Source of the DNA: an uncultured bacterium
Lineage (GTDB): Bacteria; Chloroflexota; UBA5177; JANWHV01
NCBI GenBank assembly: GCA_963827235.1
Contig: CAWHAE010000008.1
Span: 1-64,000, forward strand
Direction: 5' to 3'
Length of the DNA stretch: 64,000 nt
Every line of letters starts with the position of its first letter. The first letter of the stretch is position 1. The position numbers were made by a program, and so were the translations under genes. The notes under the pieces were generated by a model. It worked only from the letters and a program-made list of their open reading frames with translations. It ran no database searches and was not told the DNA's origin. This document shows positions 1,463 to 56,449 of the stretch, piece by piece.

Positions 1463-1827
1463 CTCTGGATGAAACGCTGATGCTCGGCTGTGTACGGTAG
1501 CAGCGCGAGCTGCCGAGCGCGCTTGAGCGCCGTGGTCAACACGCGCTGATGCTTCGCGCAGGTACCGGTCTTGCGGCGCGGCTCGATCTTGCCGCGCTCG
1601 CTGAGATACTTGCGCAAGCGAACCACGTCCTTATAGTCGACGAGGTCCATCTTGTCGACGCAGAAGTTACAGACGCGGCGCCTCGAGAACCGGTCACCGC
1701 GCGAGCCGTCGCGACGGGGGCCGCGACCCGAACGCTCGCCGCGTTCGCCGCGATCGCCACGCTCGCCGCGCGGCCCATCCGCACGCGGTCCCGCGTCGGA
1801 TCCTGAGAAGTGTGCTGGGCTGCTCAT
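1459..1827 (-). CDS. rpsR: 30S ribosomal protein S18 (Zn-binding C+ type, RG-rich N-terminal extension)
   Basis: CNFC...VDYKD...[19 protein letters not shown]...[11 protein letters not shown]. Confidence 0.97.
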
Positions 1828-2078
1828 GAGTTACTGGTACTCCCGAGTTGTCTAGAGCGCTGCGCGCCCCGTTCAGCTAAACCGGAAGCAGGCAGCGCGT
1901 GACGTGCACCGGGGCGGGCGCACGCTGCCCCTTCACTGGAACGTGTGATGGATTGTCTGCCGATGCATGAAGTTCGACTCCAGGCGAATCGCCTGGCCGG
2001 CTTTGCTGCTACATCGTGGTGCGCGCAGACACGCCGCCCTATGGTCGCCCATCCGGCGCTGCGCAGCCTACGCCACAT
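1824..2078 (-). CDS. Putative leader ORF (84 aa) translationally coupled to rpsR
   Basis: AAGGAGG-GGTGC-ATG at 2090-2076. The frame is open to a TGA overlapping the rpsR ATG (ATGA). The product is not protein-like. Confidence 0.45.
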
Positions 2079-2081
2079 GCA

Positions 2082-2167
2082 CCCCTCCTTCCCTTGGGCA
2101 AGCCCGGCCGGCATCGATTCAGGGCCCCACGGGTGGGATGCGAGCCCAGGTCCGACCGAGCGAGAAG
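2082..2167 (-). promoter_or_regulatory. S6:S18 (rpsF-type) leader RNA, second copy
   Basis: CTTCTC-GCTCGGTCGG...CCGGCCGGGC-TTG-CCC-AAGGGAAGGAG. Same ends as the copy before rpsF, with a different but pairing P2 stem. Confidence 0.75.
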
Positions 2168-2238
2168 TAACGGCACGATGCCCGGTGGACATTCGCGCCA
2201 CGGCGGCGAGCCTACAAGCGAAGCTCAACACTCGTGGT

Positions 2239-2267
2239 AGTGTAGCATCGGCCGGAAACACCGACAA
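2239..2267 (-). promoter_or_regulatory. sigma70-type promoter for leader/rpsR
   Basis: TTGTCG-17 nt-TACACT with extended -10 TG. Confidence 0.65.
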
Positions 2268-2511
2268 ACGTGCCCGATTGGTGGCGTGCCTGATTGATAA
2301 ATCGACAGGCCAAGGCCGCCGCGCTCAGAGTGGGCGCGGCGGCTCTGGGTCTGGTTAGCTCGATCCTCGACCTGTGGCGTATAGTTTAGATACCGGCGAG
2401 TGCTCGTTCAGTCAGGCCGGTGAATCGTCGCCGTCGCACCGAGGACAATCCCGCCTTGACCAATGGCGCGCCAGCCGGGATCATACGCCGCTATGCCGTG
2501 TGACCGGCAAT

Positions 2512-3090
2512 CTACTTGGTGGGCGTGAAGCTGGACATGATGGCCTGGAGGGCGGTGTACTCCTGGCTGCTCGCCGAGTAGCCCTCGACGTAAGCCATGC
2601 CCGCGAACCAGGTGAGACGACCGTCGCTGCCCGCCACGATCAGGCCCTGGGCATTATGCTTGGCATCGATCTTGTCCGTCGCGGAAGCGGCGATCAGATT
2701 CATGCCGGCCTCGGTTCCCGTGCTGAACTTGATCGCTCCAACCAGGTTCGAACCCTCCTTGAGGAATGCAGCTTCGGATGCCTTGATATGGGCCGCCGTG
2801 GCACCGCTGCGCTGCACGAGCACGTTGAACTCTGCATGCCGGTCCGGGGACGTGATCATCAAGCAGGTCGGGCTCACCTTGGCCTCTGCGGGGCCCATCG
2901 TGTCGGCGGTCTTCGTGCTCGGCTGCAGCGTCCAGGTGGCTGGGTAGCTCAGCTTGAAGCGAAGCTGGCTACTCGAATAAGACTTGGTTGCCGCCGCGGA
3001 GGCATTCGCGGTGGCGCTGGCACCTATGGCGGCCAGGAACACGGTACAAGTAATGAGCGCGCGGATTACGCCTCGCCGAGACACCATCAT
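2512..3090 (-). CDS. Secreted protein, PsbP/DcrB-like fold
   Basis: GGAGG SD before ATG 3090. Signal peptide ending ASAAA, then a FKLSYPATW motif. Confidence 0.6.
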   Translation of the reverse strand: MMVSRRGVIRALITCTVFLAAIGASATANASAAATKSYSSSQLRFKLSYPATWTLQPSTKTADTMGPAEAKVSPTCLMITSPDRHAEFNVLVQRSGATAAHIKASEAAFLKEGSNLVGAIKFSTGTEAGMNLIAASATDKIDAKHNAQGLIVAGSDGRLTWFAGMAYVEGYSASSQEYTALQAIMSSFTPTK

Positions 3091-3271
3091 ATGTAACCTC
3101 CGGGTCCGTATGGGTCGCCGCGGCGCACAGTCGTCCGCGTGCAGGACCACGCTACTGGCAGGCCCAACCACTGTCGATAGCCCATTCGGCGGCGGACACG
3201 TGAGCCGCCGCCGGGACGGGTAACAAGGCCGCATCATGGAGAATCGTGCGCGATCCTCGCCCGCGGTGGCC

Positions 3272-3800
3272 TCATTCGCCAGCGGCCTCCTCCGGAAGGA
3301 AGTCGAGGCGATCAAGCAGGACCAGCTCGCTCGCGCCGGTGCCAAACGGATGCCACGACGCGCTCCGATCACCCGCTGTTGACCACCTGCCCGGCTCATG
3401 CCGCTCGGTCCGGAACCGTGAGGCCAGAGCTTGCAGCGCCGGAACGCGCGACGAGGCGTCGAGCAGAATCTCGATGGCGACGAACATTCGAGTTATCGCC
3501 TCCGGCTCCGCATACACTAACAGCCGTCCATCGAGGATCGCCTCCGCGACCTCGAGGTGGTCGTTCAGCAGAGCCAGAACCGTGGCGCTGCCGGTTTCAC
3601 CCTCTCCGTCGATGGCGCTTCCAGCCGCTGCCGGTTGCGTGGGCAGGCCGGCCGGGCCAATGGACACGTCGACGGATTCATCGTCCAGGCGAATGCGCGC
3701 TCGGAGATCCCCGACCACCCGATAAATTCGTGCCAGCGCCGCCGGTGCCGACTCGCGCAAGGAGCCGACCAGCGCCTCTACATATTGATATTGGCCCAGC
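3272..3800 (-). CDS. SCP2 sterol/lipid-binding-like protein
   Basis: C-terminal third of ORF 3272..5200 (LALLNDHLEVAEAILDGRLLVY). Start uncertain. Confidence 0.4.
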
Positions 3801-9864: not shown

Positions 9865-12655
9865 TCATTGCGCGAAGATCTGGCCACGTACGCATTCGAA
9901 ATCGATACGCAGTTCGTTCCTGCCACTCACAGCGCTTTGCTGCAGTCTGTGGATCCCCCTTCCCTGGCAGGCGATAGGCCCCTGTACCGTTGTGATTGCA
10001 TTTGCTGCACGCGTTGCCAGCGTGCTCCAGACCGCAAGATCGGACCCTGTGCGCGGTGGCATAACGAACTCTCCTGGGAGGAGCATATTGTTGGTCAGTC
10101 GTTGATGAACCGCGGCGAGCAGTGCTTGGCCGTGCGCCTTTGTGATCCCCGGCGGATCTGGCAATGTGAGGGTATTTGCGATCGTCGCGAAAGTAATGCT
10201 ACTGCGGATCCTCGTTGCCTGGAATCGAATGCGCAGAGTGCTCGACCGCTGAGAGGTTGGCGTTGAGGCCGGCGGCGCCTTTGGCGGGCTGCTCGGCCGA
10301 GCTTGGTTCAGCGTGCCCGGGGCTAGCGGCGTCGGATTGGCGAGCGTCACGATGAACAGCGCTCTAGCGACGACGACGGCTGATACCACCACCGTCACGG
10401 TGCCGGCAATGAGAGCCAGTATCCTAGCGATGAAACTCGCGCAGGTGCCAGCCTCGGCAATCGCGCCATCCGTGCCCGCGGCCTGCGCACCAGTGAGTAT
10501 GTCCTCCGCCTCGCGAACTGCTGCCGCCTTCTCCTCGGCGGTCGCAAACTCGCTGCCGCTGACGTCGTACGCACTGCCAAGCGACTCGCCGCCATGGAGC
10601 GCGAGAGCGCCGTTGACGGTGTCCGTCTCGCTCGTGAGTTGTGTAAGTGCTGCTTCGGTGCCCGTGACGACGCCGACAGCCTGGGTCGAGTCTCGAAGGA
10701 AGCCCTGCTGAGTGAGGTTGTGCAGGGTCAGTGCGCCGCAGTCCTCGCTCGCGGGCGGCAGGCCGTTGAACTGAATGGTAGTGCCATCCGCGCGCACGAC
10801 ATAACACTGGCCCGTCGGATCGCTTCTGTCTTCCGGGTCATCTCCGGTATACTCGTACGCCTGCCCCGTCTCGTCCACCAGCGGGTCCACGCCCAGCAGC
10901 GTGCCCGTCCCCGGCTGGTACCAGCGCGCCCGCAGGTATTCCACGTTCGTCGTGCCGTCCTGCAGCTCGCCCGTGTAGCCGAAGATGCCGACCTGGCCGC
11001 TGGTCTCCGGGCTGCCGTAGGGGTCGTAGCTCTGGCCGGCCAGCACGTTGCCGCCGTCGTCGATGGTCTGCCGCACGCTGCCCTGGGTGTCCGTGCCGTA
11101 CCAGGTGCGCGTGCTGCCTGTCACGTTGGCCAGCAGGCTACCGCCGTCGTCGCGCAGGTACTCACTCGTCGTGCCACCTGTGGCGGATACCAGGATCTGG
11201 CTCATGCCGCCGGCCAGGTCCTGCGTGTAGGTCGTGCTCGTGCCGTCGACGGTGGCCGAGACCAGCGTGCCGTCGCCGTTGTAGGCGTAGTCGCGGTTGT
11301 CGCTGCCGGCCGTGGTGCCGGTGAGCCGGCCCAGGGCGTCGTAGGCATAGGTGGCCGTGCCGTCCGTGGTCAGGTTGCCCGCCGCGTCGTAGGTCCAGCC
11401 GGCGTTGCTCACCTCGTTGGCGGCGTTATACGTGTACTGCGCGGTCTGGGTGCCGTCGACCGTCACGCTGGTACGGTTGCCAGCCGGGTCGTACGTGTAG
11501 GCGAAGCTGCTGCCCGGGCTCTCCACGGCACCGGTCAGCTCCTGGATGCCGTCGTACGTGTAGGTGATGGTACGGGTGATGCCGATGGCGGACTGGAAGG
11601 TCGGCGTGGCCGTGGCCGTATTGGTGGCCGTAGCCGTGTTCGTCGCCGTGTTGGTGGGCGTGGCGGTGCTGGTCGGGGTGGCGGTGGTGGTCGGCGTACG
11701 GGTGACCGTGGCCGTCTTGGTCGGGGTGCCGGTCTTGGTAGCGGTTGGCGGTACGGGAGTCTTGGTGGCGGTCGGCGGTAACGGCGTCTTCGTCGCGGTT
11801 GGCGGCAGCGGCGTGTTGGTCGGGGGCACGGGCGTCTTCGTGGCGGTCGGCGGCACGGGAGTCTTGGTGTCGGTCGGCGGCAGCGGTGTGTTCGTCGGCG
11901 GCACGGGCGTCTTCGTGGCCGTCGGGGGCGCCGGGGTCTTGGTGGCGGTCGGCGGCGTGCCGGCTGCCGCGTGGCTGCCGGCCCACGCTGCCGGGGCTAC
12001 CCCGGCGAGCGGTCTGCCGGCCGCTGCCTGCACCGCCGGTCCCTGCTCGACGAAACCGGCCTGCTCCACGGCGAGCCCGCCGGTGCCGGCGACTTGCAGC
12101 GTCGTGCCGGGGTTGGGCAGGACCAGCATCCCGGCGCCGTCGTCGGTGGGTGTGGCGCTGGGTGTGCCGGTCGCGCTCGGCGGCAGCGAGTCGGTGTCGG
12201 TGCCGGCGGGTGTATTGGTGTCGGCCGGTGTGTCGGTCGCCGATGGGCTCGGCGTGCTGGTGTCGGCGGGCGTGCTGGTGTCGGTGGGTGTGAAGGTCGT
12301 AGTCGGCGTCATCGTGTCCGTCGCCGTGGGCGTGAGCGTGCCGGTCGCGGTGACGGTGGCGCTCGCGGTCCCGGAAGCCGTGGTCAGGCTCTCCGCCGCC
12401 CGCTGCACCAGTCCCAGCTTGTCATACTGGTAGCCGTAGTGGCTCAGCGTGGTGCTGCCCTGCATGGTCAGCAGGTCGGCGACGCGGTCCGCGCCGTCAT
12501 AGCCATAGCTGGTGGTCGTGCCGTTCAGCCGGCTGATCGTCTGCAGCCGGCCTTCCGTGTCGTACTGGTAGCTCGCCAGCGTGCTGCTGCCCTGCAGCAC
12601 GCTCTGCAGCTGCCCGTCCGTGGCGTAGTCATAGGCCAGGCTCGTGCCGTCCGGG
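9865..12655 (-). CDS. Rhs cassette 7: long core fragment with Pro/Thr stalk + TM + unknown toxin
   Basis: 911-aa ORF. YD repeats, P/T insert, DDPEDRSDPTG junction, basic C-terminal domain ending RIDFECVRGQIF. Confidence 0.85.
11192..12088. repeat. About 0.9-kb apparently identical direct repeat of 26676..27572
   Basis: Offset 15484. Alternative-frame ORFs 11426..11986 and 26910..27470 translate identically. Flanks are similar but diverged. Confidence 0.9.
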
Positions 12656-25309: not shown

Positions 25310-28300
25310 TCACCCCCCGCCGAGCACACCCGGCAGCGGATGGCCCCAGCCTATAGTTTCTATGTCGTAGAGTTGCATGGTCCGTGCGAGACCCAGCACA
25401 ACTAGAGCTGTGTAGGTGAAGGTATGGCAGTTGGACATAAAGGCTCGGTAGTCGATGCCGCGCCCACCGTTGGCTGCGTTCACGCGGCGGCCCATGGCTG
25501 CAATGAACACGTCCGCTATCGCCATCGGACTATTCAGTAGGTAAACAAACTCGTCTCGAGCGTGCGCGAGCCCTGGCGAATCGGTGGTGAGATGCGCGTA
25601 GGCTTGCACGGATGTCCTGTAGTACAACTGCTGGTCTCCCGAAGCGGCCTGCCCAGGGTTGCAACCTGGGGACTTGTCATTGGTCTTGCCGTGTGTCGGT
25701 CGTACGGTGCACAGCCCCTCAAACTTCGCGAAGTTACCCATCCCATCGGTGGTGAAAATCATCGAGTGGTTCTCCTGGTCGTTGCCAAACACCACGACCA
25801 GCAGTGAGTGACCGGCAGGCAGGTTGGTGCCGGCAGCGCACTGCGCACCACCGGAGCGCAGCGGAACCACAATCGCCGGCTGCATCGGTCCGTAGTCCGG
25901 GTCCCATGGGTCGATGCCCTCAGCCTGGCCCTGATTCGTACACGCCAAATCTGCTTGCACCACACCGTAACCGAGATTGGTATCGGCTCCGCCGTCGGTA
26001 CCGAAGTACGGCAACAGCTTGATTGGGTCGCCCTGCTTGACCGAAGCCAGGATCGGCACGCTCAGAACATCTTCACTTGGGCTGCCGCGCACGGAGCGCG
26101 AGGCCGGGTTAGTCGCTGCGCTCTGGCTTGCCGGCTGCATCGCCAGACCGGTGCCTCCCGTCTGTGAGCCTTGAGGGGAACATAGGCTTACATCCCCGAC
26201 CGTGGTCGAGGTGGCGCTGGTGAAGAACGGCACGAGCGCGTCCGGCGCGCAGATCGCCATAGCCGAAACCGACACGCTGCCCACGGCGCAATCGCCCGTC
26301 GGATCGTCGCCATTCACCGGGTCATCCCCGGCATAGACGTACGCCTGCCCCGTCTCGTCCAGCTCCGGGTCCACACCCAGCAGCGTGCCCGTCCCCGGCT
26401 GGTACCACCGCGCCCGCAGGTACTCGGCGTTCGTCGTGCCGTCCTGCAGCTCACCCGTGTAGCCGAAGATGCCGACGTTGCCAGCGGTCTCCGGGCTGCC
26501 GTAGGGGTCGTAGCTCTGCGTGGCGAGGACGGTGGCAGCGTCGTCGAGGATCTGCCGCACGCTGCCCTGGGTGTCCGTGCCGTACCAGGTGCGCGTGCTG
26601 CCTGTCACGCCGGCCAGCAGGCTGCCGCCGTCGTCGCGCAGATACTCACTCGTCGTGCCGCCTGTGGCCGTCGCGAGGATCTGGCTCATGCCGCCGGCCA
26701 GGTCCTGCGTGTAGGTCGTGCTCGTGCCGTCGACGGTGGCCGAGACCAGCGTGCCGTCGCCGTTGTAGGCGTAGTCGCGGTTGTCGCTGCCGGCCGTGGT
26801 GCCGGTGAGCCGGCCCAGGGCGTCGTAGGCATAGGTGGCCGTGCCGTCCGTGGTCAGGTTGCCCGCCGCGTCGTAGGTCCAGCCGGCGTTGCTCACCTCG
26901 TTGGCGGCGTTATACGTGTACTGCGCGGTCTGGGTGCCGTCGACCGTCACGCTGGTACGGTTGCCAGCCGGGTCGTACGTGTAGGCGAAGCTGCTGCCCG
27001 GGCTCTCCACGGCACCGGTCAGCTCCTGGATGCCGTCGTACGTGTAGGTGATGGTACGGGTGATGCCGATGGCGGACTGGAAGGTCGGCGTGGCCGTGGC
27101 CGTATTGGTGGCCGTAGCCGTGTTCGTCGCCGTGTTGGTGGGCGTGGCGGTGCTGGTCGGGGTGGCGGTGGTGGTCGGCGTACGGGTGACCGTGGCCGTC
27201 TTGGTCGGGGTGCCGGTCTTGGTAGCGGTTGGCGGTACGGGAGTCTTGGTGGCGGTCGGCGGTAACGGCGTCTTCGTCGCGGTTGGCGGCAGCGGCGTGT
27301 TGGTCGGGGGCACGGGCGTCTTCGTGGCGGTCGGCGGCACGGGAGTCTTGGTGTCGGTCGGCGGCAGCGGTGTGTTCGTCGGCGGCACGGGCGTCTTCGT
27401 GGCCGTCGGGGGCGCCGGGGTCTTGGTGGCGGTCGGCGGCGTGCCGGCTGCCGCGTGGCTGCCGGCCCACGCTGCCGGGGCTACCCCGGCGAGCGGTCTG
27501 CCGGCCGCTGCCTGCACCGCCGGTCCCTGCTCGACGAAACCGGCCTGCTCCACGGCGAGCCCGCCGGTGCCGCCGGCCTGCAGCGCCGTGCCGGGGTTGG
27601 GCAGGACCAGCATTCCGGTGCCGTCGTCGGTGGGCGTGGCACTGGGTGTGTCGGTGGCGGCCGGTGTGTCGGTGTCGGTGGCAGCCGGTGTGTCGGTGTC
27701 GGTGGCGGCGGGTGTGAAGGTCGCGGACGGGATCGGCGTGTCGGTATCGGTGGGCGTGAGCGTGCCGGTCGCGGTGACGGTGGCGCTCGCGGTCCCGGAA
27801 GCGGTGGCCAGGCTCTCTGCCGCCCGCTGCACCAGACCCAGCTTGTCATACTGGTAGCCGTAGTGGTTTAGCGTGGTGCTGCCCTGCATGGTCAGCAGGT
27901 CGGCGACGCGGTCCGCGCCGTCATAGCCATAGCTGGTGGTCGTGCCGTTCAGCTCGGCCGATCGTCTGCAGCCGGCCTTCGGTGTCGTACTGGTAGCTCG
28001 CCAGGGTGCTGCTGCCCTGCAGCACGCTCTGCAGCTGCCCGTCGGTTGCGTAGCGGTAGGCCAGGCTCGTGCCGTCCGGGTAGGTCAGCCCGGTGCGCTG
28101 CCCATTCGGCGTCGTAGGCGTAGCCCACCGTGCCCGTGGTGGGGGCGCTCACCTGGGTGATGCGGCCCAGCTGGTCGTAGGTGAAGCTGGTGGTGCCCGT
28201 GCCGTCGCTCAGGCTGGTGCGCTGGCCCAGGGCGTCGTAGGTGGCGCTGATCGGCGCCGTCAGGTCCGGGGCGCTCTCTCCCGTCTGCCGGTCGAGCCCG

Positions 28301-31300
28301 TCGTAGGCGTAGGTGACGTCGTCTGCGCTGCCCCGCGGGTCGTGCTGCTCGACCAGCCGCCCGCCCAGGTCATAGTCGGAGGTCGTCACGTTGCCCAGGG
28401 CGTCCGTGGCCGTGATCTGCTCGTTCGCGGCGTCGTAGCGAAGCTCCGTGTGTGGCCGTCGGCGTCGGTGATCGCGACCCTGTTGCCCGCCCGGTCGTAC
28501 TGGTAGCTGGTGGTCACGTTGCAGGGTGGCAGGCGTGCAGCTTCCCGTGACCGCGTTCTTGGTCACGCTGGTCTGGTGGTCGAGCAGGTCATAGGTGTAG
28601 GCGGTGACGATGCCGTCCGGGTCCGTGGTGGCGAGGGTGCGGCCCGCGGCGTCGTAGACCGTGCTCGTCGCCAGGTCCTGGTCGGGCGCGCTGGCGCTGC
28701 CCGTCTGGCCGGCGTTGCCGGTCGTAAAGTCCGCGATGCTCTCCGCCACCCGGCCCAGCCCGTCCACGAAGCTCACCGTTAGCCGGCCGTCGGGCGTCTG
28801 GCGTCCACCGCTCGGTGCCCGTGCCGTCGTAGCCGCTGGTGGTGGTGCGGCGTCATCGGGTCCGTGCTGGTGACCTGGTCGCCCAGCCCGTCGTAGGTGA
28901 AGCTGCTCGTGTTGCCATCGCCATCCGTCGTGCTCAGCGTCTGGCCCAGGCCGTCGTAGCCGGTTCCGGTCGTCACGTTGCGGTCCGGGTAGAGCGCGTT
29001 GTAGGCGGCACAGCCGCTGAGCGAGGGCGCGCCGCCGCGGTCCGTGCAGTTCTCGGTCACCGCCACGCTCCGCCCCAGGCCGTCGTAGCTGGTCTGCGTC
29101 ACGCGGCCCAGGGCGTCGATGCTCTGGTACGCTCGTCCCAGGGCATCGTAGCCCGTACTCGCGGGCACGTTGCGGTCGGGATGGCCGGCGTCGAAGGCGG
29201 CGCAGCCGGTGGCCACCGGGTTGCCGTTGGCATCGGTGCAGTTCTGGATGCTCGCGCCGGCTCGGGCCGAGCTGGTCGTAGAGCGTGCTGGTCCAGCGGC
29301 CCAGCGCATCCTGCTCGCCCACCGCCAGCCCCGTCGCCGGGTCGTACTGCGTCGTGCTCGTGCGGTTGGTGTCCGTGCGAGTGCCCAGGGTGCTGGGGTC
29401 CTAGTTCTGGATGGTCGTGGTCACCCGGCCCAGCGGGTCGTACTGCGACTGCGTGATCGTGTCCGTGATTGGCGCCGTGGCGCTGAACGTACCGTCCACG
29501 TAGTTGGCGATGCTCTGGTTCGTGGTGCCGTCGGCGTTGTAGCTGGTGTACTGGATGATGTCGGTGTCGTGGCCGTCCGTCCAGCTCTGGTTGGCCGGGT
29601 CCACGGTCAGCGGGTCGCCGTTCTCGTAGTTCTGGATCGTCTCGTAGGGCCGGTTGAGGGCGTCGTAGAGCGTCTCGGTCCAGCGGCCCAGGGCGTCCTG
29701 CTGCCAGGTCGCGTTGCCCTGGTTGTCGTACCTGGTCTGCGTCACCACGTTGACGTCCGCTCCCGTGCCCACGCCGGGCTGCTAGTCGAGCGTGGTGGTG
29801 CTCAGCCGGCCCAGGCTGTCGTACGTCGTAGGCGGTGGTGCGCGTGGTGGCGGCGCTGAAGGTCTTGCCGGCCAGGCTGAAGGTGCCGGTCAGGATGCCG
29901 GTCTGCGTCACCAGCTGCGTGCGGCCCAGGCTGTCGTAGCCGTAGAGCGTGGCCACGTTGGCGTCCGTCTGCGCTGGGGCTGTAGGCGGGCGGCGTGCCG
30001 GGATGATCGGGTTGCCGCTGCCGTCCAGCGGCACCGGCTGCAGGTTCTTGAGCGTCCAGTCCACCTGGCCGAGCGCGTTGTAGTGGGTGACGCTGTAGTG
30101 GCCCAGCGTGTCCCGCACCCAGATCTGCCGGCCCAGGCCGTCGTAGCCGTAGCTGGTGGTCACGTCCTGGTCGGGATAGAGCGGGTTGTAGGTGCCCGTC
30201 CTGTCGTTCTGGATGGTCTCCTGCAACGGAGTTGTCGGCGTTGTAGAGCGTGACGTCGCTGCGGGCCAGCGGCGTGTTCAGGCCCACGGTGGTGGTCATC
30301 ACCCGGCCCAGCGTGTCGTAGCCGTAGCCGGTGCTCTCGGCCAGGCTGGCGCCGTAGCCCACCGTCTGCTCGGTGAGCTGGCCGGTCGCGTCGTAGTCGT
30401 AGCGCGTATCCACGCCCTGGGGGCTGATCTCGTCCTCCAGCCAGTTCTTGCCCGGGTAGCGCACGTTGTAGACGTACTGCGTGGTCAGGCTCAGCGGCGC
30501 GGTCGTGGTGATGGCCCCATCCGCGCCCACCTCTGCCGCCGCGGCGGCCGGGGTGAAACGCATGGAGGCAGCGGCCTCCTGCATGCTCTCGCCGGGCGTC
30601 GTGGTCGTGGTGATCCCGGTGGTGACCTGAATCAGGTTGCCTGCCGCGTCGTAGGACAGGGCCGTCTGCCGGCCCATGGTATCGGTCGCCGTGATCGGCC
30701 GGCCCGAGGCTGTCGTACTGCATGCTGCTGGTCTGGCCGAGCGCGTTGGTCACGCTCGGTCGGCTCGCCCCAGCTGTTGGACGTCTCCTGCGTGCTGTTG
30801 CCGTCGCCGTCCACCGTGGTGCCGGGCGCCATGTTCGCGTCAAACTGCGACGCTGAAAGCTGCACGCCGTCGCGCATCGCGCCCGTCAGCATGTTGGTAT
30901 CCGGGTCGTACTGGTAGATCGTGGTGTCCTGCGTGCTCGTCCGGTCCGGTGGTGACTACCGTGGTCTGGCCGGGCGTGTACGCGGCGGTGAGCGTCGTGC
31001 CGTTCTGCAGGCTCTGTCCGATCACCTTGCCGGCCGGTGTGTAGACGTCGTACGTCTGGGACGCGTCCGTCTCGCCCAGGTTGTCGTCGGTCGCCGTCAG
31101 CAGGTGATTGGTGTAGCTGTACTGTCGTGACGCGGTCCATCACGCCCGTCACCTGCTGCAGGTCGCCGGCCGCGGAGTAGGCGTACTGCGCCTGCCTGCC
31201 GGCGGGGTCGCGTACGTCCTGCAGCTGGCCGGCGGGTTGTAGGCCAGGTCGAGGTAGCGGCCGCGTTGTTGGTGTCGCCGATCTGCTGAGCAGGCCGCCC

Positions 31301-32045
31301 GTGTAGGTCAGGGTCAGCATGCCGCCGTGGCCGTCGCTCTCGCCTTTCAGCTGCCCCGCCGCGTTGAAGGTCAGCGACGATTGGTCCGGCAGGCCGTCTG
31401 GGTGAAGCTGCCGTCCTCGTTCTCCACCAGCGTGCTGTACACGCCGGGGTAGGGCGCGAACTGGCCGGGGCCGGTGATCGCGTACTGCTGCCAGTCGCCG
31501 TTGGCGGCGACCACGATCATGGTGTTCGCGATGCCTCCGGTCATGCTGGGCGTGAGCAGGTAGGCGCCGTACGAGCTCTGCCAGCCGTAGCCCAGGATGC
31601 CGGGCTGGCCGGGGTCGCCGGTGGCCTGGCTGTTGTAGGTGCGGCTCCAGGCGAGCGCCGGGTCCGGCGCTGTCCACCTCGAGGTCCGTGCTGCCGGTGA
31701 CGTAGTTGCCGGTTCGCGTGTTGAAGGACTGCCCGGCCGCGGGCTGCGCGCTGTTGCAGCTGCAGCGGTCCTGCGTCGCGGTCAGTGCGGCAGGCACCGA
31801 GAGCTTGGCCACGAAGGCGTCCTCACCGCCCGCGTAGTCGCTCTGCTCGGCGCCGCCCGCCACGGGAAAGTCGCTGGACGTGGTATAGCCCGCGACGTAG
31901 GCGTTGCCGCTGCCGTCCAGGGCGATGGCCCACCCGCCGTCGTTGCCGCTACCGCCCAGGTAGGTGCTGTAGACCAGGCCGCTGCCCGCGGCGTTCAGCT
32001 CGGTCACGAAGGCGTGGTAGTTCCCATTGGGCGCGGTGGCCTCAC
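25310..32045 (-). CDS. Main Rhs/YD-repeat toxin gene (5'-truncated, many frameshifts in 27.9-31.7 kb) with papain-like C-terminus
   Basis: SBBP propeller repeat ([29 protein letters not shown]), DUF6531-like NTRTGNY, YD repeats, P/T insert, [11 protein letters not shown], then H...[11 protein letters not shown]. Confidence 0.85.
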
Positions 32046-32047
32046 TC

Positions 32048-34411
32048 TCAGAGCCCGAGCGCGTAACTGATGGCCGCCTTCTCCTCCAGGGCGTACCCCT
32101 CGGCCCACGCGGCCATGAAAGCGCCTTCCCCCAGCTGCGCGCGAAGCGCCGCAAGGTGCTCATCGTAACGGGCCTGACGCTCCGCGCCGAGTATCGCCCC
32201 GATCTGCTCGGTGAGTCGTTCCGCCGCTCCCAGGAGCCGGACGGCACGCTCGGCGTCGCCGTCCTGGCGGACCAGAAAGCTCAGGCCGTGCAAAGTCCAG
32301 CGCAGCCCGTCCGTATCCTCCAGGTCGCGCCGCATGGCCAGGCTGTCGAGCAGGCACCTGCGTGCTCGCTCGCGATCGCCGATTAAGAGCGCCGTGTCCC
32401 CGATGTTTGCCAGCTGGTGGGCCAGGCTATGCCCGTCCCCCAGCTCGCGAAACACCTGCGCGCACTCCTCGAATGCGGCCAGTGCCTGCTCCAGGTTCCC
32501 CTCCTGCTCGGCAAGCACGCCCAGATTGCTCAGCAGACGGGACCGCACCTGCCGGTCACCGGCCGCACCTACGGTAGCCAGGCCCTCCTCATAGAGGTCG
32601 CGTGCCCTGCCGTAGTCCTCCTCCTCCAGGGCCACGTTGCCGAGACTGAGCAGACATTGGGCCACCTGACTGCTGTCGCCCGCTGCCCTCCACAGCGCCA
32701 GTGCCTCCTCGTATTCGGCTTGCGCCAAAGCCACGTCGCCGAGCCAGTACACCAGGTCGCCCGCCTGCCTCAGCGCCCTGGCCCGCAGCCCGTCCTCGGC
32801 CGCAGGCTGTCTTGCGAGCGCCGCCCGCAGCCACTCGCGCCCCTCGCGATACTGGCCTCGCATTTTCCAGAAGTTGCCGAGTGCGGTGGCAAGGCGCAGT
32901 CCCAGCAGCCTGTCGCCTTCCTCGAGAATGCACCAGTGCAGCGCCGCGCGCATGTTGTCGCGCTCGGCCACCAGCCGCTCGAGCCACACGCTCTGCTCGG
33001 TACCACGTAGCGCCGGCTCTGCTTGCTCCGCCAGTTCCGTGAAGTAACCCGCGTGCACCCGGCACACCCCGGTCAGGTCGCCGCTCTCCCGAAGCCGGTC
33101 GACGGCGAACTCGCGGATTACTTCCAGCATTGTGAAACGCGCCTCACCATCGGCCGCATCGCTCCGCTGGAGCAGGCTCGCGTCGACCAGCGACGTCAGG
33201 CCGGACAGCACCGCGCCCGGCGGGCCGCCTTCCGATAGGCAGATGGCTTCAGCCGCTTCCATCGTGAGGCCGCCGGCGAACACGGCCACCCGCCGCAGGA
33301 TCGCCTGCGCGGGTGTCTGCAGCAGGTCGTAGCTCCAGGCGATCGTGGTCGCCATGGTCTGCTGCCTCGGTGGCAGGTCGCGTGGTCCTCGGGTCAACAC
33401 CTCGAGGCGCCGCTCCAGTCGGGCGAGCAGGGCGCGCGGCGAGAAGAGCCGTACCTGCGCCGCCGCCAGTTCCAGGGCCAACGGCAGGCCGTCCAGCCGA
33501 GCGCTCACCCCCGCCACCGTTGCCGCGTTCGCCGCGTTCAGCTCGAAGCCTGCTCTCTGCTCTGCCACCCGCTCCAGGAAGACGGTCACCGCGGGCACCT
33601 GTGCGAGGACCTCGAGCGGCGGGAGATGTCCGGGATCGGGCACCGCCAGCGGCTCGACCGTCACCACCGACTCGCCGCGTACGCCCAGCAGAAGTCGGCT
33701 GGTGGCAAGCACCGTGAGCGCGGGACAGTCTTCCAGCAGACGAGCCAGTGCAGGCACGGCAGGGAGCAGGTGCTCGAAGTTGTCCAGTACGAGCAGCAGC
33801 TGCCGGTTCTTCAGGTGGGTAGCCAGCGTCTCGGCTACCGGCCGGCCTTCCTCCGCGCGCAATCCCGTACGCTGCGCCAGCTCCGCCAGAACCAGCTGAG
33901 GTTCTCGCAGCTCGGCCAGGGACACAAAGACCACCCCATGGGCAAAGGCTGTGACCAGTTCCGCGGCAACTGCCAGGGCTAGGCGCGTCTTACCCACGCC
34001 GCCCGGGCCGGTGAGCGTTACCAGTCGCGCCGTCGAGCCCGCGTTCAGTCTGGGCTGCAGGAGGGCGGTAAGCTGCCGCACTTCCGCATCGCGTCCGCGC
34101 AATACGGTCAGCGGTGTCGGCAGCGCGGCCGGCGCGTTAGGCTCGGCGGATTGGCCGGCGCGGGAGCTGGGAGCGCGACGCGGCGCCACGGCCAGGAAGA
34201 CCGCGCGGTCGGCAGCCGGCAGTGCCAGCGCGTCGGCCAGCCGCAGCAGGGTCTCGCGCTGCGGGCTCCGGTTGACTCCGCGCTCCAGGTCGCTAATGCC
34301 CCGCGCGCTTAGACCGGACCGTTCGGCCAGCGCCTCCTGGGACAGCCCTGCTTCCAGGCGCCGGCGCCGCAACTGATCCCCGAAGTGGTCTGTTGGGAGC
34401 TTCGTGGCCAG
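32048..34411 (-). CDS. XRE-HTH + STAND ATPase + TPR regulator
   Basis: [46 protein letters not shown], TPRs. Likely CTG start at 34411 behind GGAGG. Confidence 0.9.
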
Positions 34412-35823: not shown

Positions 35824-36528
35824 CTAGGATCCCGGATAGACGATGCCGGATCCCGCGTAGCCGTAGTTGCTGCGAGGGCCCAGCCAGGCGTCGGTTGCGT
35901 AGCCCATTTGCTCCCAGTACCCGATCCGCAGCTTGCTGCTGAGAGTGATCCTGTTCACCCACTTGATGTACTTGAATCCGTACATGTCCGGAATGACCAG
36001 GCGGAGCGGATATCCTTGCTCCGCCGATAGCGCTGCGCCGTTGAGCTTGTACCCGAGCAGCACGTCCGGCAGGTGCGCCTGATCCATGCTGAGACTCTCC
36101 GTGTAGCTGCCGTCCGCCGATGAGAGGAGCACGTATCGCGCGTTGGGTAGTGGTTGCACTCGTGCCAGCAAATCGCTGAGCTTTACACCCTCCCAGCGGC
36201 AGTTCGGCACGACCCAGCCCGTGACGCAGTGGTAGTCCTTCACGATGCCGGTGCTCGGCATCGCCAGCAGCTCGGCAAGCTCATACGTGCCGGGAAACTG
36301 CACCAGTCCGTCGACCTTGAGGCGGTAGCTCTTGGCGTCGAGCCGGGGAATGCCGCTCGTCGTGTAGATCTGGAAGCCGTTGACAGAGAACGCCGAGGCA
36401 ATCAGGCTGGCGCCGGGCAGCTTCTTCGCTCCGATCACAAGCCCGGCCAGGCCGGCTGCGAGGGCGGACAGGAATACGCGGCGGCCGACATGGATGGTAC
36501 GTGGCCTGGATGCGGGTTGGCGAGGCAT
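35824..36528 (-). CDS. Molybdopterin-dependent oxidoreductase (sulfite oxidase/MsrP family), copy 1
   Basis: Tat-like RRVFL. HCVTGW, GYPLRLVIP, YGFKYIKW, GYWE. Confidence 0.9.
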   Translation of the reverse strand: MPRQPASRPRTIHVGRRVFLSALAAGLAGLVIGAKKLPGASLIASAFSVNGFQIYTTSGIPRLDAKSYRLKVDGLVQFPGTYELAELLAMPSTGIVKDYHCVTGWVVPNCRWEGVKLSDLLARVQPLPNARYVLLSSADGSYTESLSMDQAHLPDVLLGYKLNGAALSAEQGYPLRLVIPDMYGFKYIKWVNRITLSSKLRIGYWEQMGYATDAWLGPRSNYGYAGSGIVYPGS

Positions 36529-45140: not shown

Positions 45141-45575
45141 ACGTCGGGGCTCGACGAGTGTCGGCGCGCCGTGCTGGTCATTGCCATGGAGAAGACATGT
45201 GGCGCAATGAAAGACCTTGGGCAGCGTTCGTTCATTTGCACGGAAAGTCGTGCACTCCTGTGCCGAAGGCAATGGGCGGGTGCTTATTCACGCGCCCATT
45301 GGGGGGCTGGCAGCATTGGCGATAGCGGCGTGAGTCTCGCGCTATGACGCTGGTGCAAACACGTGTCGCGCAGGTTCTTCACTCGCGGTACGGCTCGACA
45401 TGGAAAACTTGCCGCAGTTGGAGGCTACTGTTCCCCAGTGCCGCCGTCCCCGTTCGCTGCCGCTCGACCTCAGTCGGAGGCTCGGTCCACGTGCACAAGA
45501 AGACCCGAACGTCAGTCCGTGCCTGCGGCAGTTCTCAGCGTAATAATAAGGTTGAGGCGTCCGCCTGCCGGCCCG

Positions 45576-46085
45576 TCAGAACGGGATGTCGGAGTCGTCC
45601 GCCTCGTCGAGATCCGGCGCCGGCGTGCGGTTTCCTGAGGAACGACTGTTGAAAGGCGTGGGCGTCCGGCTGGGACTCGATCCACCAAACGCTGGGGCGT
45701 CGTCAAACGATCCACCCGGTTCCGTGACGCCCTTAGGCGTCAGAATCTGCATGTCGTCCATCGTCACGTCCAGCGAGAACCGCTTCTGCCCATCGTTGCC
45801 AATGAACTCTCGCGTACGCAGATCGCCGGAGACGAACACGGCCATGCCCTTCTTGAGCAGATCGTTCGAGATCTCCGCCTGCCGCCGCCAGGCGCTGACG
45901 CGGAACCACGTGGTCGACTCTTCCGGCTGGGCGCCCATGCCACCTTCGGCGCCCTGGGCGCGGCGATTTCGCTCACTCACTGCCACGCTGAACGACGCCA
46001 CTGCCGTGCCGTCGTTGGTATATCGCATGACCGGATCGCTGCCCAGATGCCCGATAATGAAGATCTTCTTGAGGTTTCCAGCCAT
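45576..46085 (-). CDS. ssb: Single-stranded DNA-binding protein
   Basis: IIGHLGSDP.MRYT..G, TTWFRV, C-terminal DDSDIPF. Confidence 0.97.
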   Translation of the reverse strand: MAGNLKKIFIIGHLGSDPVMRYTNDGTAVASFSVAVSERNRRAQGAEGGMGAQPEESTTWFRVSAWRRQAEISNDLLKKGMAVFVSGDLRTREFIGNDGQKRFSLDVTMDDMQILTPKGVTEPGGSFDDAPAFGGSSPSRTPTPFNSRSSGNRTPAPDLDEADDSDIPF

Positions 46086-46121
46086 CGTCACGCCTCCCCG
46101 ATGTAACTACGGCCGCCCGAA

Positions 46122-46562
46122 TCACTCCTCGGCGGCAGGTATGAGATCGGGATCGATGCTCTCGTCCTCCAGCACCGCGCTATCGTCGAGGCCCACCGTT
46201 TCGCGCTCGATCGGTCGTGCCTCGGCTGCCTGTCCGGGCGCAACCGCAACCGGAAGCACAGGCTTGATCGGCACCTCGTCCTGGCGGAACGCTCCGTGAC
46301 GCAGGATATTCTCGTTGAGCCTGAGATCGTTCTCGAACGCGCTCATGGCATCGGTAGGCATCGCGAACCGGGTCGTGACGTAGAATCCATCCCGATTGTG
46401 TGCTATTGGATAGGCCAGGCGCCTGCGGCCCCAGGCGTGTACCTCGGTGACTGATCCGCCGCCAGCTCCGATCAAATGGTTGACTCGCTCAATGACGGCA
46501 GCCGTGGCCTCTTCGTCGAGCGCCGTGCTGACAATGAACGTAACTTCGTAGTCGCGTAACAA
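46122..46562 (-). CDS. rpsF: 30S ribosomal protein S6 (TTG start, acidic tail)
   Basis: RDYEVTFIV...WGRRRLAYPI...G.Y...ILRH. Confidence 0.95.
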   Translation of the reverse strand: MLRDYEVTFIVSTALDEEATAAVIERVNHLIGAGGGSVTEVHAWGRRRLAYPIAHNRDGFYVTTRFAMPTDAMSAFENDLRLNENILRHGAFRQDEVPIKPVLPVAVAPGQAAEARPIERETVGLDDSAVLEDESIDPDLIPAAEE

Positions 46563-46567
46563 TACAC

Positions 46568-46650
46568 CGCTCCTTCCCTTGGGTAAGCCCCAGGTGCCCA
46601 CACGTCGACCGGACCGGTGTATGCCCGTTCGAGGCACTCAGAGCGAGAAG
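46568..46650 (-). promoter_or_regulatory. S6:S18 (rpsF) leader RNA
   Basis: CTTCTC-GCTC..GTGCC...GGCAC..GGGC-TTA-CCC-AAGGGAAGGAG immediately before rpsF. P1 overlaps the SD. Confidence 0.8.
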
Positions 46651-46715
46651 CATCCCTGGCCGCGCAGTGCCAGCCAGCACAACATGTCACGTTCAGCCAC
46701 TGAACGCGCCTTGTG

Positions 46716-46745
46716 AATGTAGCAGTTGCGCCCCATCGGCGGCAA
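46716..46745 (-). promoter_or_regulatory. sigma70-type promoter for rpsF-ssb
   Basis: TTGCCG-18 nt-TACATT with extended -10 TG. Confidence 0.6.
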
Positions 46746-55768: not shown

Positions 55769-56449
55769 CTAGAGGGCGTAGCCATAGTTCCCGCGCGGCC
55801 CGAGCCAGGCATCGGTGGCGTATCCTCGCTGCTCCCAATAGCCCGTCTGCAGCTCTTTGCTCAGGCTAATGCGGTTGATCCACTTGATGTACTTGAATCC
55901 GTACATGTCGGGTATGACCAGGCGCAGCGGATAACCCTGTTCGGCAGAGAGTGGAGCGCCGTTGAGCCTGTAGCCGAGCAAGACGTCGGGCAAGCGGGCC
56001 TGGGACATACTGAGACTCTCCGTGTAGCTGCCATCAGCCGAGGCAAGCAGCACGTACTTGGCGTCCGGGGTGGGCTGCACCTGGTCCAGAAAGTCGCTGA
56101 GCTTGATCCCTTCCCAGCGACACTGGGGAACCTCCCACCCCGTGACACAGTGAAAATCCTTGATCATGCTCGTGCTCGGCATAGCCAGAAGATCCGCCAC
56201 CTTGTAGGTTGCGGGGTTCCTGACCAGTCCATCGACCGTCAGACTGTAGGTCTTCTCGGTGAGCTGCGGGATTCCACTGGTGGTGTAGATCTGGAAGCCG
56301 TTCACAGAGAACGCTGAGGCCAGAAGATTGAAGCCTGGCAGATGCTTGGTCCCGATCGCTAGCCCGGCTACACCGGCGGCGAGCGCGGCAAGGAATACGT
56401 TGCGACCGATGTGCATCGGTCGCGGTCTTTCTTCGGTACGGTGGTCCAT
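55769..56449 (-). CDS. Molybdopterin-dependent oxidoreductase, copy 2
   Basis: Close paralog of 35824..36528. RNVFL in place of RRVFL. Confidence 0.9.
   Translation of the reverse strand: MDHRTEERPRPMHIGRNVFLAALAAGVAGLAIGTKHLPGFNLLASAFSVNGFQIYTTSGIPQLTEKTYSLTVDGLVRNPATYKVADLLAMPSTSMIKDFHCVTGWEVPQCRWEGIKLSDFLDQVQPTPDAKYVLLASADGSYTESLSMSQARLPDVLLGYRLNGAPLSAEQGYPLRLVIPDMYGFKYIKWINRISLSKELQTGYWEQRGYATDAWLGPRGNYGYAL

Follow-up and report, generated by a model that had tools for sequence, protein, structure and literature searches.

How is a ribosomal protein gene expressed and regulated once it has been cut away from its operon? The question is raised by a stretch of 64,000 nt (positions 1 to 64,000, forward strand, of contig CAWHAE010000008.1, assembly GCA_963827235.1) from an uncultured bacterium of the Chloroflexota (UBA5177; JANWHV01), hereafter termed the window. 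Its rpsR gene, for ribosomal protein S18, lies 44 kb away from rpsF, for S6, and a copy of the leader RNA that precedes rpsF, by which the S6:S18 complex represses that gene, is found upstream of rpsR as well. The explanation that we favour, with moderate confidence, is that an island split the operon and that a leader paralogue foreign to the resident lineage now gives rpsR a promoter and probably also S6:S18 feedback. Positions below are those of the window, and the genome that holds it is termed G000.

A second S6:S18 leader

The motif CTTCTCGCTC...GGGCTT(A/G)CCCAAGGGAAGGAG occurs at two sites in the window, 2085–2167 and 46570–46650, and exactly twice in the whole 7.98-Mb genome, where the reversed control pattern has 0 matches. 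The first of these modules ends 258 nt upstream of the rpsR ATG. The anatomy of S6:S18 leaders, as described in the available portions of two papers (PMC3895269, PMC3854524), comprises a hairpin base that bears the Shine-Dalgarno (SD) sequence, a 3′ bulge with a conserved CC or CCR 2–3 nt before the SD, and a variable helix H2. All of this can be recognized in the rpsR-side copy (2071–2170, minus strand), whose parts follow one another in the order CUUCUC, GCUCGGUCGG ... CCGGCCGGGC, UUGCCCAA, GGGAAGGAGG, 5 nt and an ATG at 2078. Its basal helix P1 is formed by CUUCUC (2167–2162) and GGGAAG, the latter running into AAGGAGG, with 6/6 pairs standard; the P1 pairs are invariant in 13/13 family leaders. 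The leader SD, AAGGAGG (2090–2084), thus lies inside the 3′ strand of P1, 5 nt before the ATG. Read by hand, H2 (also called P2) pairs GCUCGGUCGG with CCGGCCGGGC at 10/10 positions (11/12 in the rpsF copy), and the modelled H2 pairs are standard in 8/8 cases. The 3′ bulge UUGCCCAA immediately precedes GGGAAGGAG and has the length and the CCC of the family consensus. The rpsR-side copy therefore has the SD-bearing basal helix, the CC bulge and the paired, covarying H2 of the family; what it lacks is the family position directly before an rpsF start, which the resident leader (46558–46653, minus strand), an orthologue of the leaders in the relatives G001, G002 and G003, occupies.

For a search independent of both copies we built a covariance model, R1, from the rpsF leaders of 14 relatives (three of the same genus and 11 of the same class), with the two window copies and one unpublished genome excluded. 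Its structure, written on alignment A3, holds 14 pairs in P1 and H2. In this alignment 96.9% of the cells are paired, and six of the eight pairs of H2 have changed on both sides; the covariation score is reached by 0/500 shuffles, and slid registers drop to 47–68% paired. When R1 is run on the window it matches only 46558–46653 (37.6 bits, E 4.7e-10) and 2071–2170 (36.8 bits, E 8.4e-10), and genome-wide it returns the same two sites (E 5.9e-8 and 1.1e-7) with no third match at E≤1. The match at 2071–2170 is full length, with 14/14 modelled pairs standard. RNAalifold, given 13 family-type leaders with both window copies among them, yields P1, H2 and an apical stem of 4 bp that closes a conserved ACACC loop, and 9/18 of its pairs show compensatory changes.

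Neither the general RNA database nor the folding of single sequences recognizes the pair. An Rfam scan of the window gave no family at the gathering score; RF02893 (RpsF_leader), which scores 110.1 bits on an Escherichia coli control, matched neither copy at the gathering score or at E≤10, and the matches of other families around both leaders are at chance level. The original prediction had looked to this Rfam model as a check on both loci. Its failure at both says little and is uninformative rather than refuting, since RF02893 also misses the undoubted rpsF leader and appears too narrow for the phylum. Minimum free energy folding of the single leaders is no better than that of shuffles (z +0.57 and −0.42), and the same holds for the whole 436-nt 5′ region (z −0.35).

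On the comparative evidence of the model match, P1, the covarying H2, the CC bulge and the SD placed in P1, the rpsR-side element is truly homologous to the S6:S18 (rpsF-type) leader, not a chance resemblance, as the original prediction had proposed. What that prediction had read from the letters (two copies with near-identical ends, the SD, the ATGA and the GGGAG) likewise holds throughout.

The top of the structure has a feature of its own. An apical hairpin with the conserved ACACC loop is common to the genus and family leaders (46610–46625 and 2125–2140; columns 28–44 of alignment A4), the loop of the rpsR-side copy reading CCCACCC. It stands outside the published general motif and might serve as a further C-rich contact or be particular to the lineage.

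The split operon

The ancestral arrangement can be seen in the relatives. In 4/4 congeners ssb stands directly before rpsR, and 3/4 also carry rpsF at that locus; the locus of the fourth is cut by a contig end, its leader lying on a different contig. An exact search for the leader motif in the relatives' rpsR loci found none, because no leader stands there. In the window, rpsF (TTG start, 46562–46122, minus strand) is followed by ssb (minus strand, ending at 45576, such that the two genes span 45576–46562), and the operon now stops after ssb. The distant rpsR (1827–1459, minus strand, 122 aa) is followed by a PpiC-type rotamase-like gene (1462–320, minus strand; Pfam Rotamase), whose ATG overlaps the rpsR stop and which occupies the same place in G001 to G004. 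As originally noted, rpsR and rpsF are separated. Each is present as the sole copy in the genome.

Between 63622 and the ssb stop at 45576 the window is colinear with a 40-kb stretch of G001, which takes up again at 1859 and runs through rpsR and the rotamase gene into contig C20. The synteny break and the junction sequences, compared with G001, define an insertion of ~43.7 kb with approximate edges at ~1870 and 45510, located in the ssb-rpsR spacer and seen in G000 only. At its rpsR-proximal edge stand the second promoter and leader. A remnant of the ancestral spacer (1828–1868, minus strand) can be aligned to the spacer of G001, its last 32 nt being almost identical; the ~40 nt that precede rpsR are hence ancestral and read GGGAG, a 12-nt gap and ATGAGC, the GGGAG (1844–1840, minus strand) being the native rpsR SD, 12 nt before the rpsR ATG. 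The S18 proteins of G000 and G001 are 92% identical.

Three further observations concern these genes. An 11-nt stretch, GCCGCAGGCAC, which forms a small hairpin after the ssb stop (within 45455–45575), matches the ssb-rpsR spacer of G002, which would place the left edge of the insertion possibly ~60–70 nt past ssb and not at the ssb stop. A weak terminator-like site lies downstream of ssb at 45519–45506. S18 carries an N-terminal extension of ~50 residues in which Arg, Gly, Glu and Asp abound (1670–1827), which is common to the congeners and variable across the class.

Promoters and origin of the rpsR-side copy

The rpsR-side module includes a predicted promoter. Its extended −10, TGCTACACT (2247–2239, minus strand), lies 71 nt upstream of the leader and aligns to the −10 regions of family rpsF promoters; a −35-like hexamer, TTGTCG (2262–2267, minus strand), was read by hand 17 nt before TACACT. 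The same reading gives this promoter, TTGTCG-17-TACACT, the hexamers and spacing of the rpsF promoters of loci L157 and L158. The resident rpsF promoter is of another type, TTGCCG-18-TACATT with TG before the −10 (46716–46745, minus strand) and ~11 extra nt, which is kept in G001, L152 and L160; its TGCTACATT (46724–46716) lies 66 nt upstream of the rpsF-side leader. In G000, G001 and G002 the ~11 extra bases fall between GCCGATG and the −10, compared with L157, L158 and L159, which suggests that the −35 element was re-formed upstream in the G000-G001-G002 clade. A 10-bp GC-rich hairpin (2314–2346, minus strand) is located just before the rpsR-side promoter and after the last gene of the island (2512–3399); it is likely the end of the island transcript. 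This hairpin is without the T-run demanded by the terminator scan and was the source of spurious weak Rfam matches to small RNAs.

The leader sequences point the same way as the promoters. The rpsR-side copy is identical to the resident leader at 56/92 positions (61%), to the leaders of G001 and G002 at 56/92 each and to that of G003 at 47/92, whereas the resident leader and its G001 orthologue agree at 69/91 (76%). When 110 nt of upstream sequence are added to the comparison, identity is 39–50% between the copy and every leader compared and 74–75% between the resident leader and its closest orthologues. From this low identity and the distant type of promoter it follows that the rpsR-side copy did not arise by recent duplication of the resident leader; its affinities indicate that it derives from a leader lineage outside G000-G001-G002, via transfer or old paralogy. 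A donor search with a copy-specific 30-mer gave no exact match in metagenome or genome contigs. The terminal genes of the island are beside rpsF in 0 of 16 related loci, and the rpsR-proximal 7 kb of the island have no DNA match in G001 to G003 and one 68% match in G004.

This origin undoes one argument of the original prediction, which had taken P2 interiors that differ and still pair as a sign of selection. That comparison is confounded: compensations can be inherited from the rpsF leader of another lineage, and since the copy does not come from the resident leader, the P2 differences do not show selection at the rpsR locus.

Rarity of the arrangement

Within the class, R1 matches 20/21 genomes, with one copy in each except G000 and G016; the second copy of G016 is a 127-nt identical overlap of contig ends, an artefact. 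Of 151 genomes sampled evenly across the phylum, 35 are matched at E≤0.01, and G000 is the only one with two real copies. A second match in G017 (20.9 bits, before a hexapeptide-repeat gene) was dismissed. Both tallies include the unpublished genome G018 as a single-copy case.

Rather than whole genomes, rpsR loci can be searched directly. Among 80 such loci from public contigs R1 found 17 matches at E≤1, most of them ~0.9–1.1 kb before rpsR, the spacing expected of the order rpsF-ssb-rpsR. One leader, 280 nt before rpsR in L050, actually precedes a normal rpsF whose stop overlaps rpsR. A pattern scan recovered family-type leaders on eight metagenome and three genome contigs, and 11/11 are followed by an S6 N-terminus (in L152 only four codons remain between the leader and the contig end). 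Full-text literature searches, covering main texts but not supplementary lists of instances, found no rpsR-side S6:S18 leader. By these surveys, the arrangement is known from one genome; it is new in position and known in structure.

The frame between leader and rpsR

The SD of the rpsR-side leader opens a frame of 84 codons (1824–2078, minus strand), with its ATG at 2078–2076 and its TGA at 1826–1824. The latter overlaps the rpsR ATG at 1827–1825, such that the ATGA at 1827–1824 shows the feature of coupled gene pairs, an upstream stop overlapping a downstream start. The original prediction took its limits from an open reading frame (ORF) of 147 aa starting at TTG 2267, which is a purely mechanical entry; the frame that matters begins at 2078.

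The frame was described there as not protein-like, and this description is borne out. Its GC content at codon positions 1, 2 and 3 is.60,.74 and.58, compared with.56–.72,.45–.59 and.71–.82 in rpsR, rpsF, ssb, the rotamase gene and two island genes. A search of proteins of 46–147 aa with its product gave no homologue at E≤0.01. There are 0 stops in frame over the 84 codons and 3 and 5 in the other two frames.

The source of the filler was sought as well. Homology to the rpsF operon ends within a few bases of the frame start codon and is not seen again until the spacer remnant. In the 205-nt filler, nhmmer with a profile of the rpsF-ssb operon found no rpsF or ssb remnant, protein hidden Markov models for S6 and SSB reached ≤0.6 bits on the six frames, and blastn and tblastx against its own genome returned nothing. 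A DNA search of 401 phylum genomes (a count that takes in the unpublished G226, with one chance-level match) gave only chance-level matches of 20–50 nt. Taking codon composition and searches together, the frame is probably a dummy, not a protein gene.

A proposed mechanism and its alternatives

We propose that a Rhs-dominated segment of ~43.7 kb split an ancestral rpsF-ssb-rpsR-ppiC operon, and that an rpsF promoter with its S6:S18-binding leader, a paralogue of other leader lineage, came to stand at the rpsR-proximal edge of the island. The promoter of this second copy would supply rpsR and ppiC, and their transcript would most likely be under the same S6:S18 feedback as rpsF; such feedback on rpsR is likely because P1 with its SD, the CC bulge and the paired H2 are all intact. 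Ribosomes on the 84-codon frame would read across the native rpsR SD and terminate at the rpsR ATG, and repression of the frame would plausibly lower rpsR translation by lost coupling, or else the survival of the transcript. This last is the weakest step of the scheme, a relay through the dummy frame being no more than plausible. The two-leader interpretation originally put forward is partly supported: leader homology, split and dummy frame stand, and the argument from selection falls; that two leaders keep the stoichiometry, and that repression is relayed, are reasonable to infer and are not findings. A fuller version would have the module arrive from another lineage with the island or be captured at its edge and be kept since it restored regulated expression to rpsR, an essential gene cut off by the insertion, with the frame serving purely as a ribosome relay and the two leaders balancing S6 and S18; taken whole, we regard this version as unlikely.

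Several observations weigh against the proposal of a promoter with working feedback, and most of them speak for a plainer account, in which the fragment of promoter and leader came with the rearrangement or was caught by it and only the promoter matters: rpsR would be read from its ancestral SD, and leader and frame would be unselected, at most soaking up S6:S18. The arrangement is specific to G000. Because the copy belongs to another lineage than the resident leader, no selection at rpsR need be assumed to explain its compensatory differences. The integrity of the copy may reflect recent arrival. The native SD and spacer are unchanged from G001, where they work 53 nt past the ssb stop without any overlap, and rpsR translation may be independent of the frame. 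The ATGA from which coupling was originally predicted is present, but it is ancestral, coming from the second codon of rpsR and standing also in G001, where no frame ends there, and nothing shows that the frame was shaped for coupling. The frame is without coding or conservation signal, and a given frame is open over 249 nt in 11.5% of 5000 dinucleotide shuffles, atop which ending on the ATGA further requires one in three frames. A hairpin in which the native rpsR SD and start codon can pair with each other (1818–1847; 1480–1506 in L085), with 8 bp identical in G000 and G001 (−7 to −7.7 kcal/mol) and absent in G002, is weak, 39/200 shuffles folding as well. Neither promoter is called by a simple sigma-70 consensus scan. 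That the promoter is all that matters nevertheless seems doubtful to us, if a serious contender, for the copy scores as well as a genuine leader, with all its modelled pairs and its CC bulge in order, and has kept a strong SD with an ideally spaced ATG. The sequence right after that start codon retains no trace of rpsF, in contrast to the intact leader, and an S6:S18-binding leader on the rpsR transcript could hardly be retained without consequence.

The relay could also be transcriptional: with S6:S18 blocking the frame, 250 nt of naked, hairpin-rich RNA would invite premature termination or decay, the frame being a ribosome track without reinitiation at the ATGA. Two strong hairpins lie within the frame, the genome encodes Rho (117 bits), and the E. 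coli rpsF transcript falls ~4.5-fold on over-production of S6:S18, according to the available part of one report (PMC4647458). Set against this, the region 1300–2700 holds no terminator-like site, the overall fold is, as given above, no better than that of shuffles, and the RNA of the frame is not C-rich over G (C/G ~0.7–1.3 along it), which offers no specific support for Rho loading and so also tells against the transcript branch of our own proposal. We consider an exclusively transcriptional relay improbable. A further concern is that the arrangement comes from one genome only, with an estimated contamination of 9%, and that the reads of one DNA run (a small share, at 80% likeness) give no cover of 1801–2400, where the leader lies, and short pieces elsewhere. 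The contig might then join two organisms or strains, the second leader belonging to the rpsF locus of another genome. We judge such an assembly or binning artefact very improbable: the leader is followed by 205 nt without rpsF similarity and then by the organism's own ssb-rpsR spacer remnant and rpsR, no other rpsR exists in the genome and none follows ssb, the ~30 identical bases between the copies are too few to mislead an assembler, and the GC content of the island (65.7%) equals that of the flanks (64.5%) for this purpose. Scarcely credible, finally, is a real small basic protein encoded by the frame and co-expressed with S18. Its strong SD and ATG, and a frame open where the other two are interrupted, would suit such a gene; GC at position 2 exceeding that at position 3, the reverse of every gene checked, and the want of any homologous protein or related DNA in the searches described above do not.

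Content of the island

The insertion is an Rhs island. It carries an Rhs polymorphic-toxin array in which eight cassettes recur between 5.5 and 28 kb and in which the domains RHS_repeat, Tox-ART-HYD1 and Imm5 occur, together with genes for LssY_C, a STAND NTPase, a Ser/Thr kinase and HD proteins, and more. No integrase was found among the 20 island ORFs scanned, many more being present.

In the Rhs locus (5500–32300, minus strand) the RHS-repeat genes at ~27949–32247 come first and are followed by the eight cassettes, whose starts are 2.1–4.3 kb apart and which share 74–100% identity over 300 nt. One ORF has Tox-ART-HYD1 and its neighbour Imm5. The cassettes have the appearance of arrayed orphan modules for toxin tips and immunity. 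Two copies of a block that repeats internally every ~27 nt lie 15.3–15.4 kb apart (11641–11983 and 27125–27467); the ORFs around these blocks (11564–12433 and 27048–27857, plus strand) have a third-position GC of.88–.89 and no Pfam match. An island gene with a molybdopterin oxidoreductase domain (35855–36488) has a paralogue, 77% identical in DNA, in the conserved flank (55776–56446), and both genes match the same segment of G001.

Implications and comparison with known systems

Leaders of ribosomal protein operons are usually treated as fixed parts of those operons. If the fuller version outlined above, which we regard as unlikely, is correct, an autoregulatory leader of this kind has moved horizontally and acts on rpsR, the partner gene. 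The locus would be a natural experiment, in which a leader proves relocatable and yet useful and stoichiometric feedback is rebuilt after an operon break. Leader, filler frame and gene would also make a simple test bed for separating coupling from transcript effects.

Regulation of a distal gene by translational coupling is known for ribosomal proteins from the L35-L20 case of rpmI-rplT. In such coupled operons the repressor blocks the first cistron, and the gene of the repressor or of its partner stands downstream, overlapping the stop of that cistron. The layout upstream of rpsR is alike, but the upstream cistron of those operons is a gene, whereas here it is a filler frame and the coupling is putative. 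Locus L050, from the Ardenticatenaceae, has the same order of leader, ORF and ATGA overlap onto rpsR; its ORF, unlike the one described here, is a normal rpsF of 113 aa, with one leader serving both genes. In that locus (2155–2824) leader, rpsF and rpsR follow one another without an intervening ssb, and the overlap reads ATGATG. The available part of PMC4647458 sets out the general logic by which repression of a first cistron reaches the genes after it, through coupling and through loss of the transcript.

A different route to control of rpsR has been proposed for the Bacteroidia (PMC7797042). As far as the available part of that proposal goes, it resembles ours in being an rpsR-specific feedback independent of rpsF, but its logic is entirely different: bS18 would occlude the anti-SD, and no leader structure takes part. 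In the cyanobacterial split (Fu et al. 2014), as here, rpsF and rpsR are at different loci and rpsF has a leader; in the portion of that work available, the leader is at rpsF only and rpsR lies near an rpmG homologue, whereas the rpsR of the window has a leader of its own. Both founding papers on the leader (PMC3895269, PMC3854524), in their available portions, likewise place it only before rpsF.

The nearest known system is the S6:S18 leader itself (rpsF_leader, RF02893; S6S18CBM; Matelska et al. 2013; Fu et al. 2014; Babina et al. 2015). Both copies in the window share its architecture, even though the Rfam model matches neither at E≤10. It is known before rpsF, which is where the resident copy stands, whereas the second copy precedes an orphan non-coding frame and rpsR. 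On present comparison the rpsR-side element is a member of this family by structure and departs from it in position.

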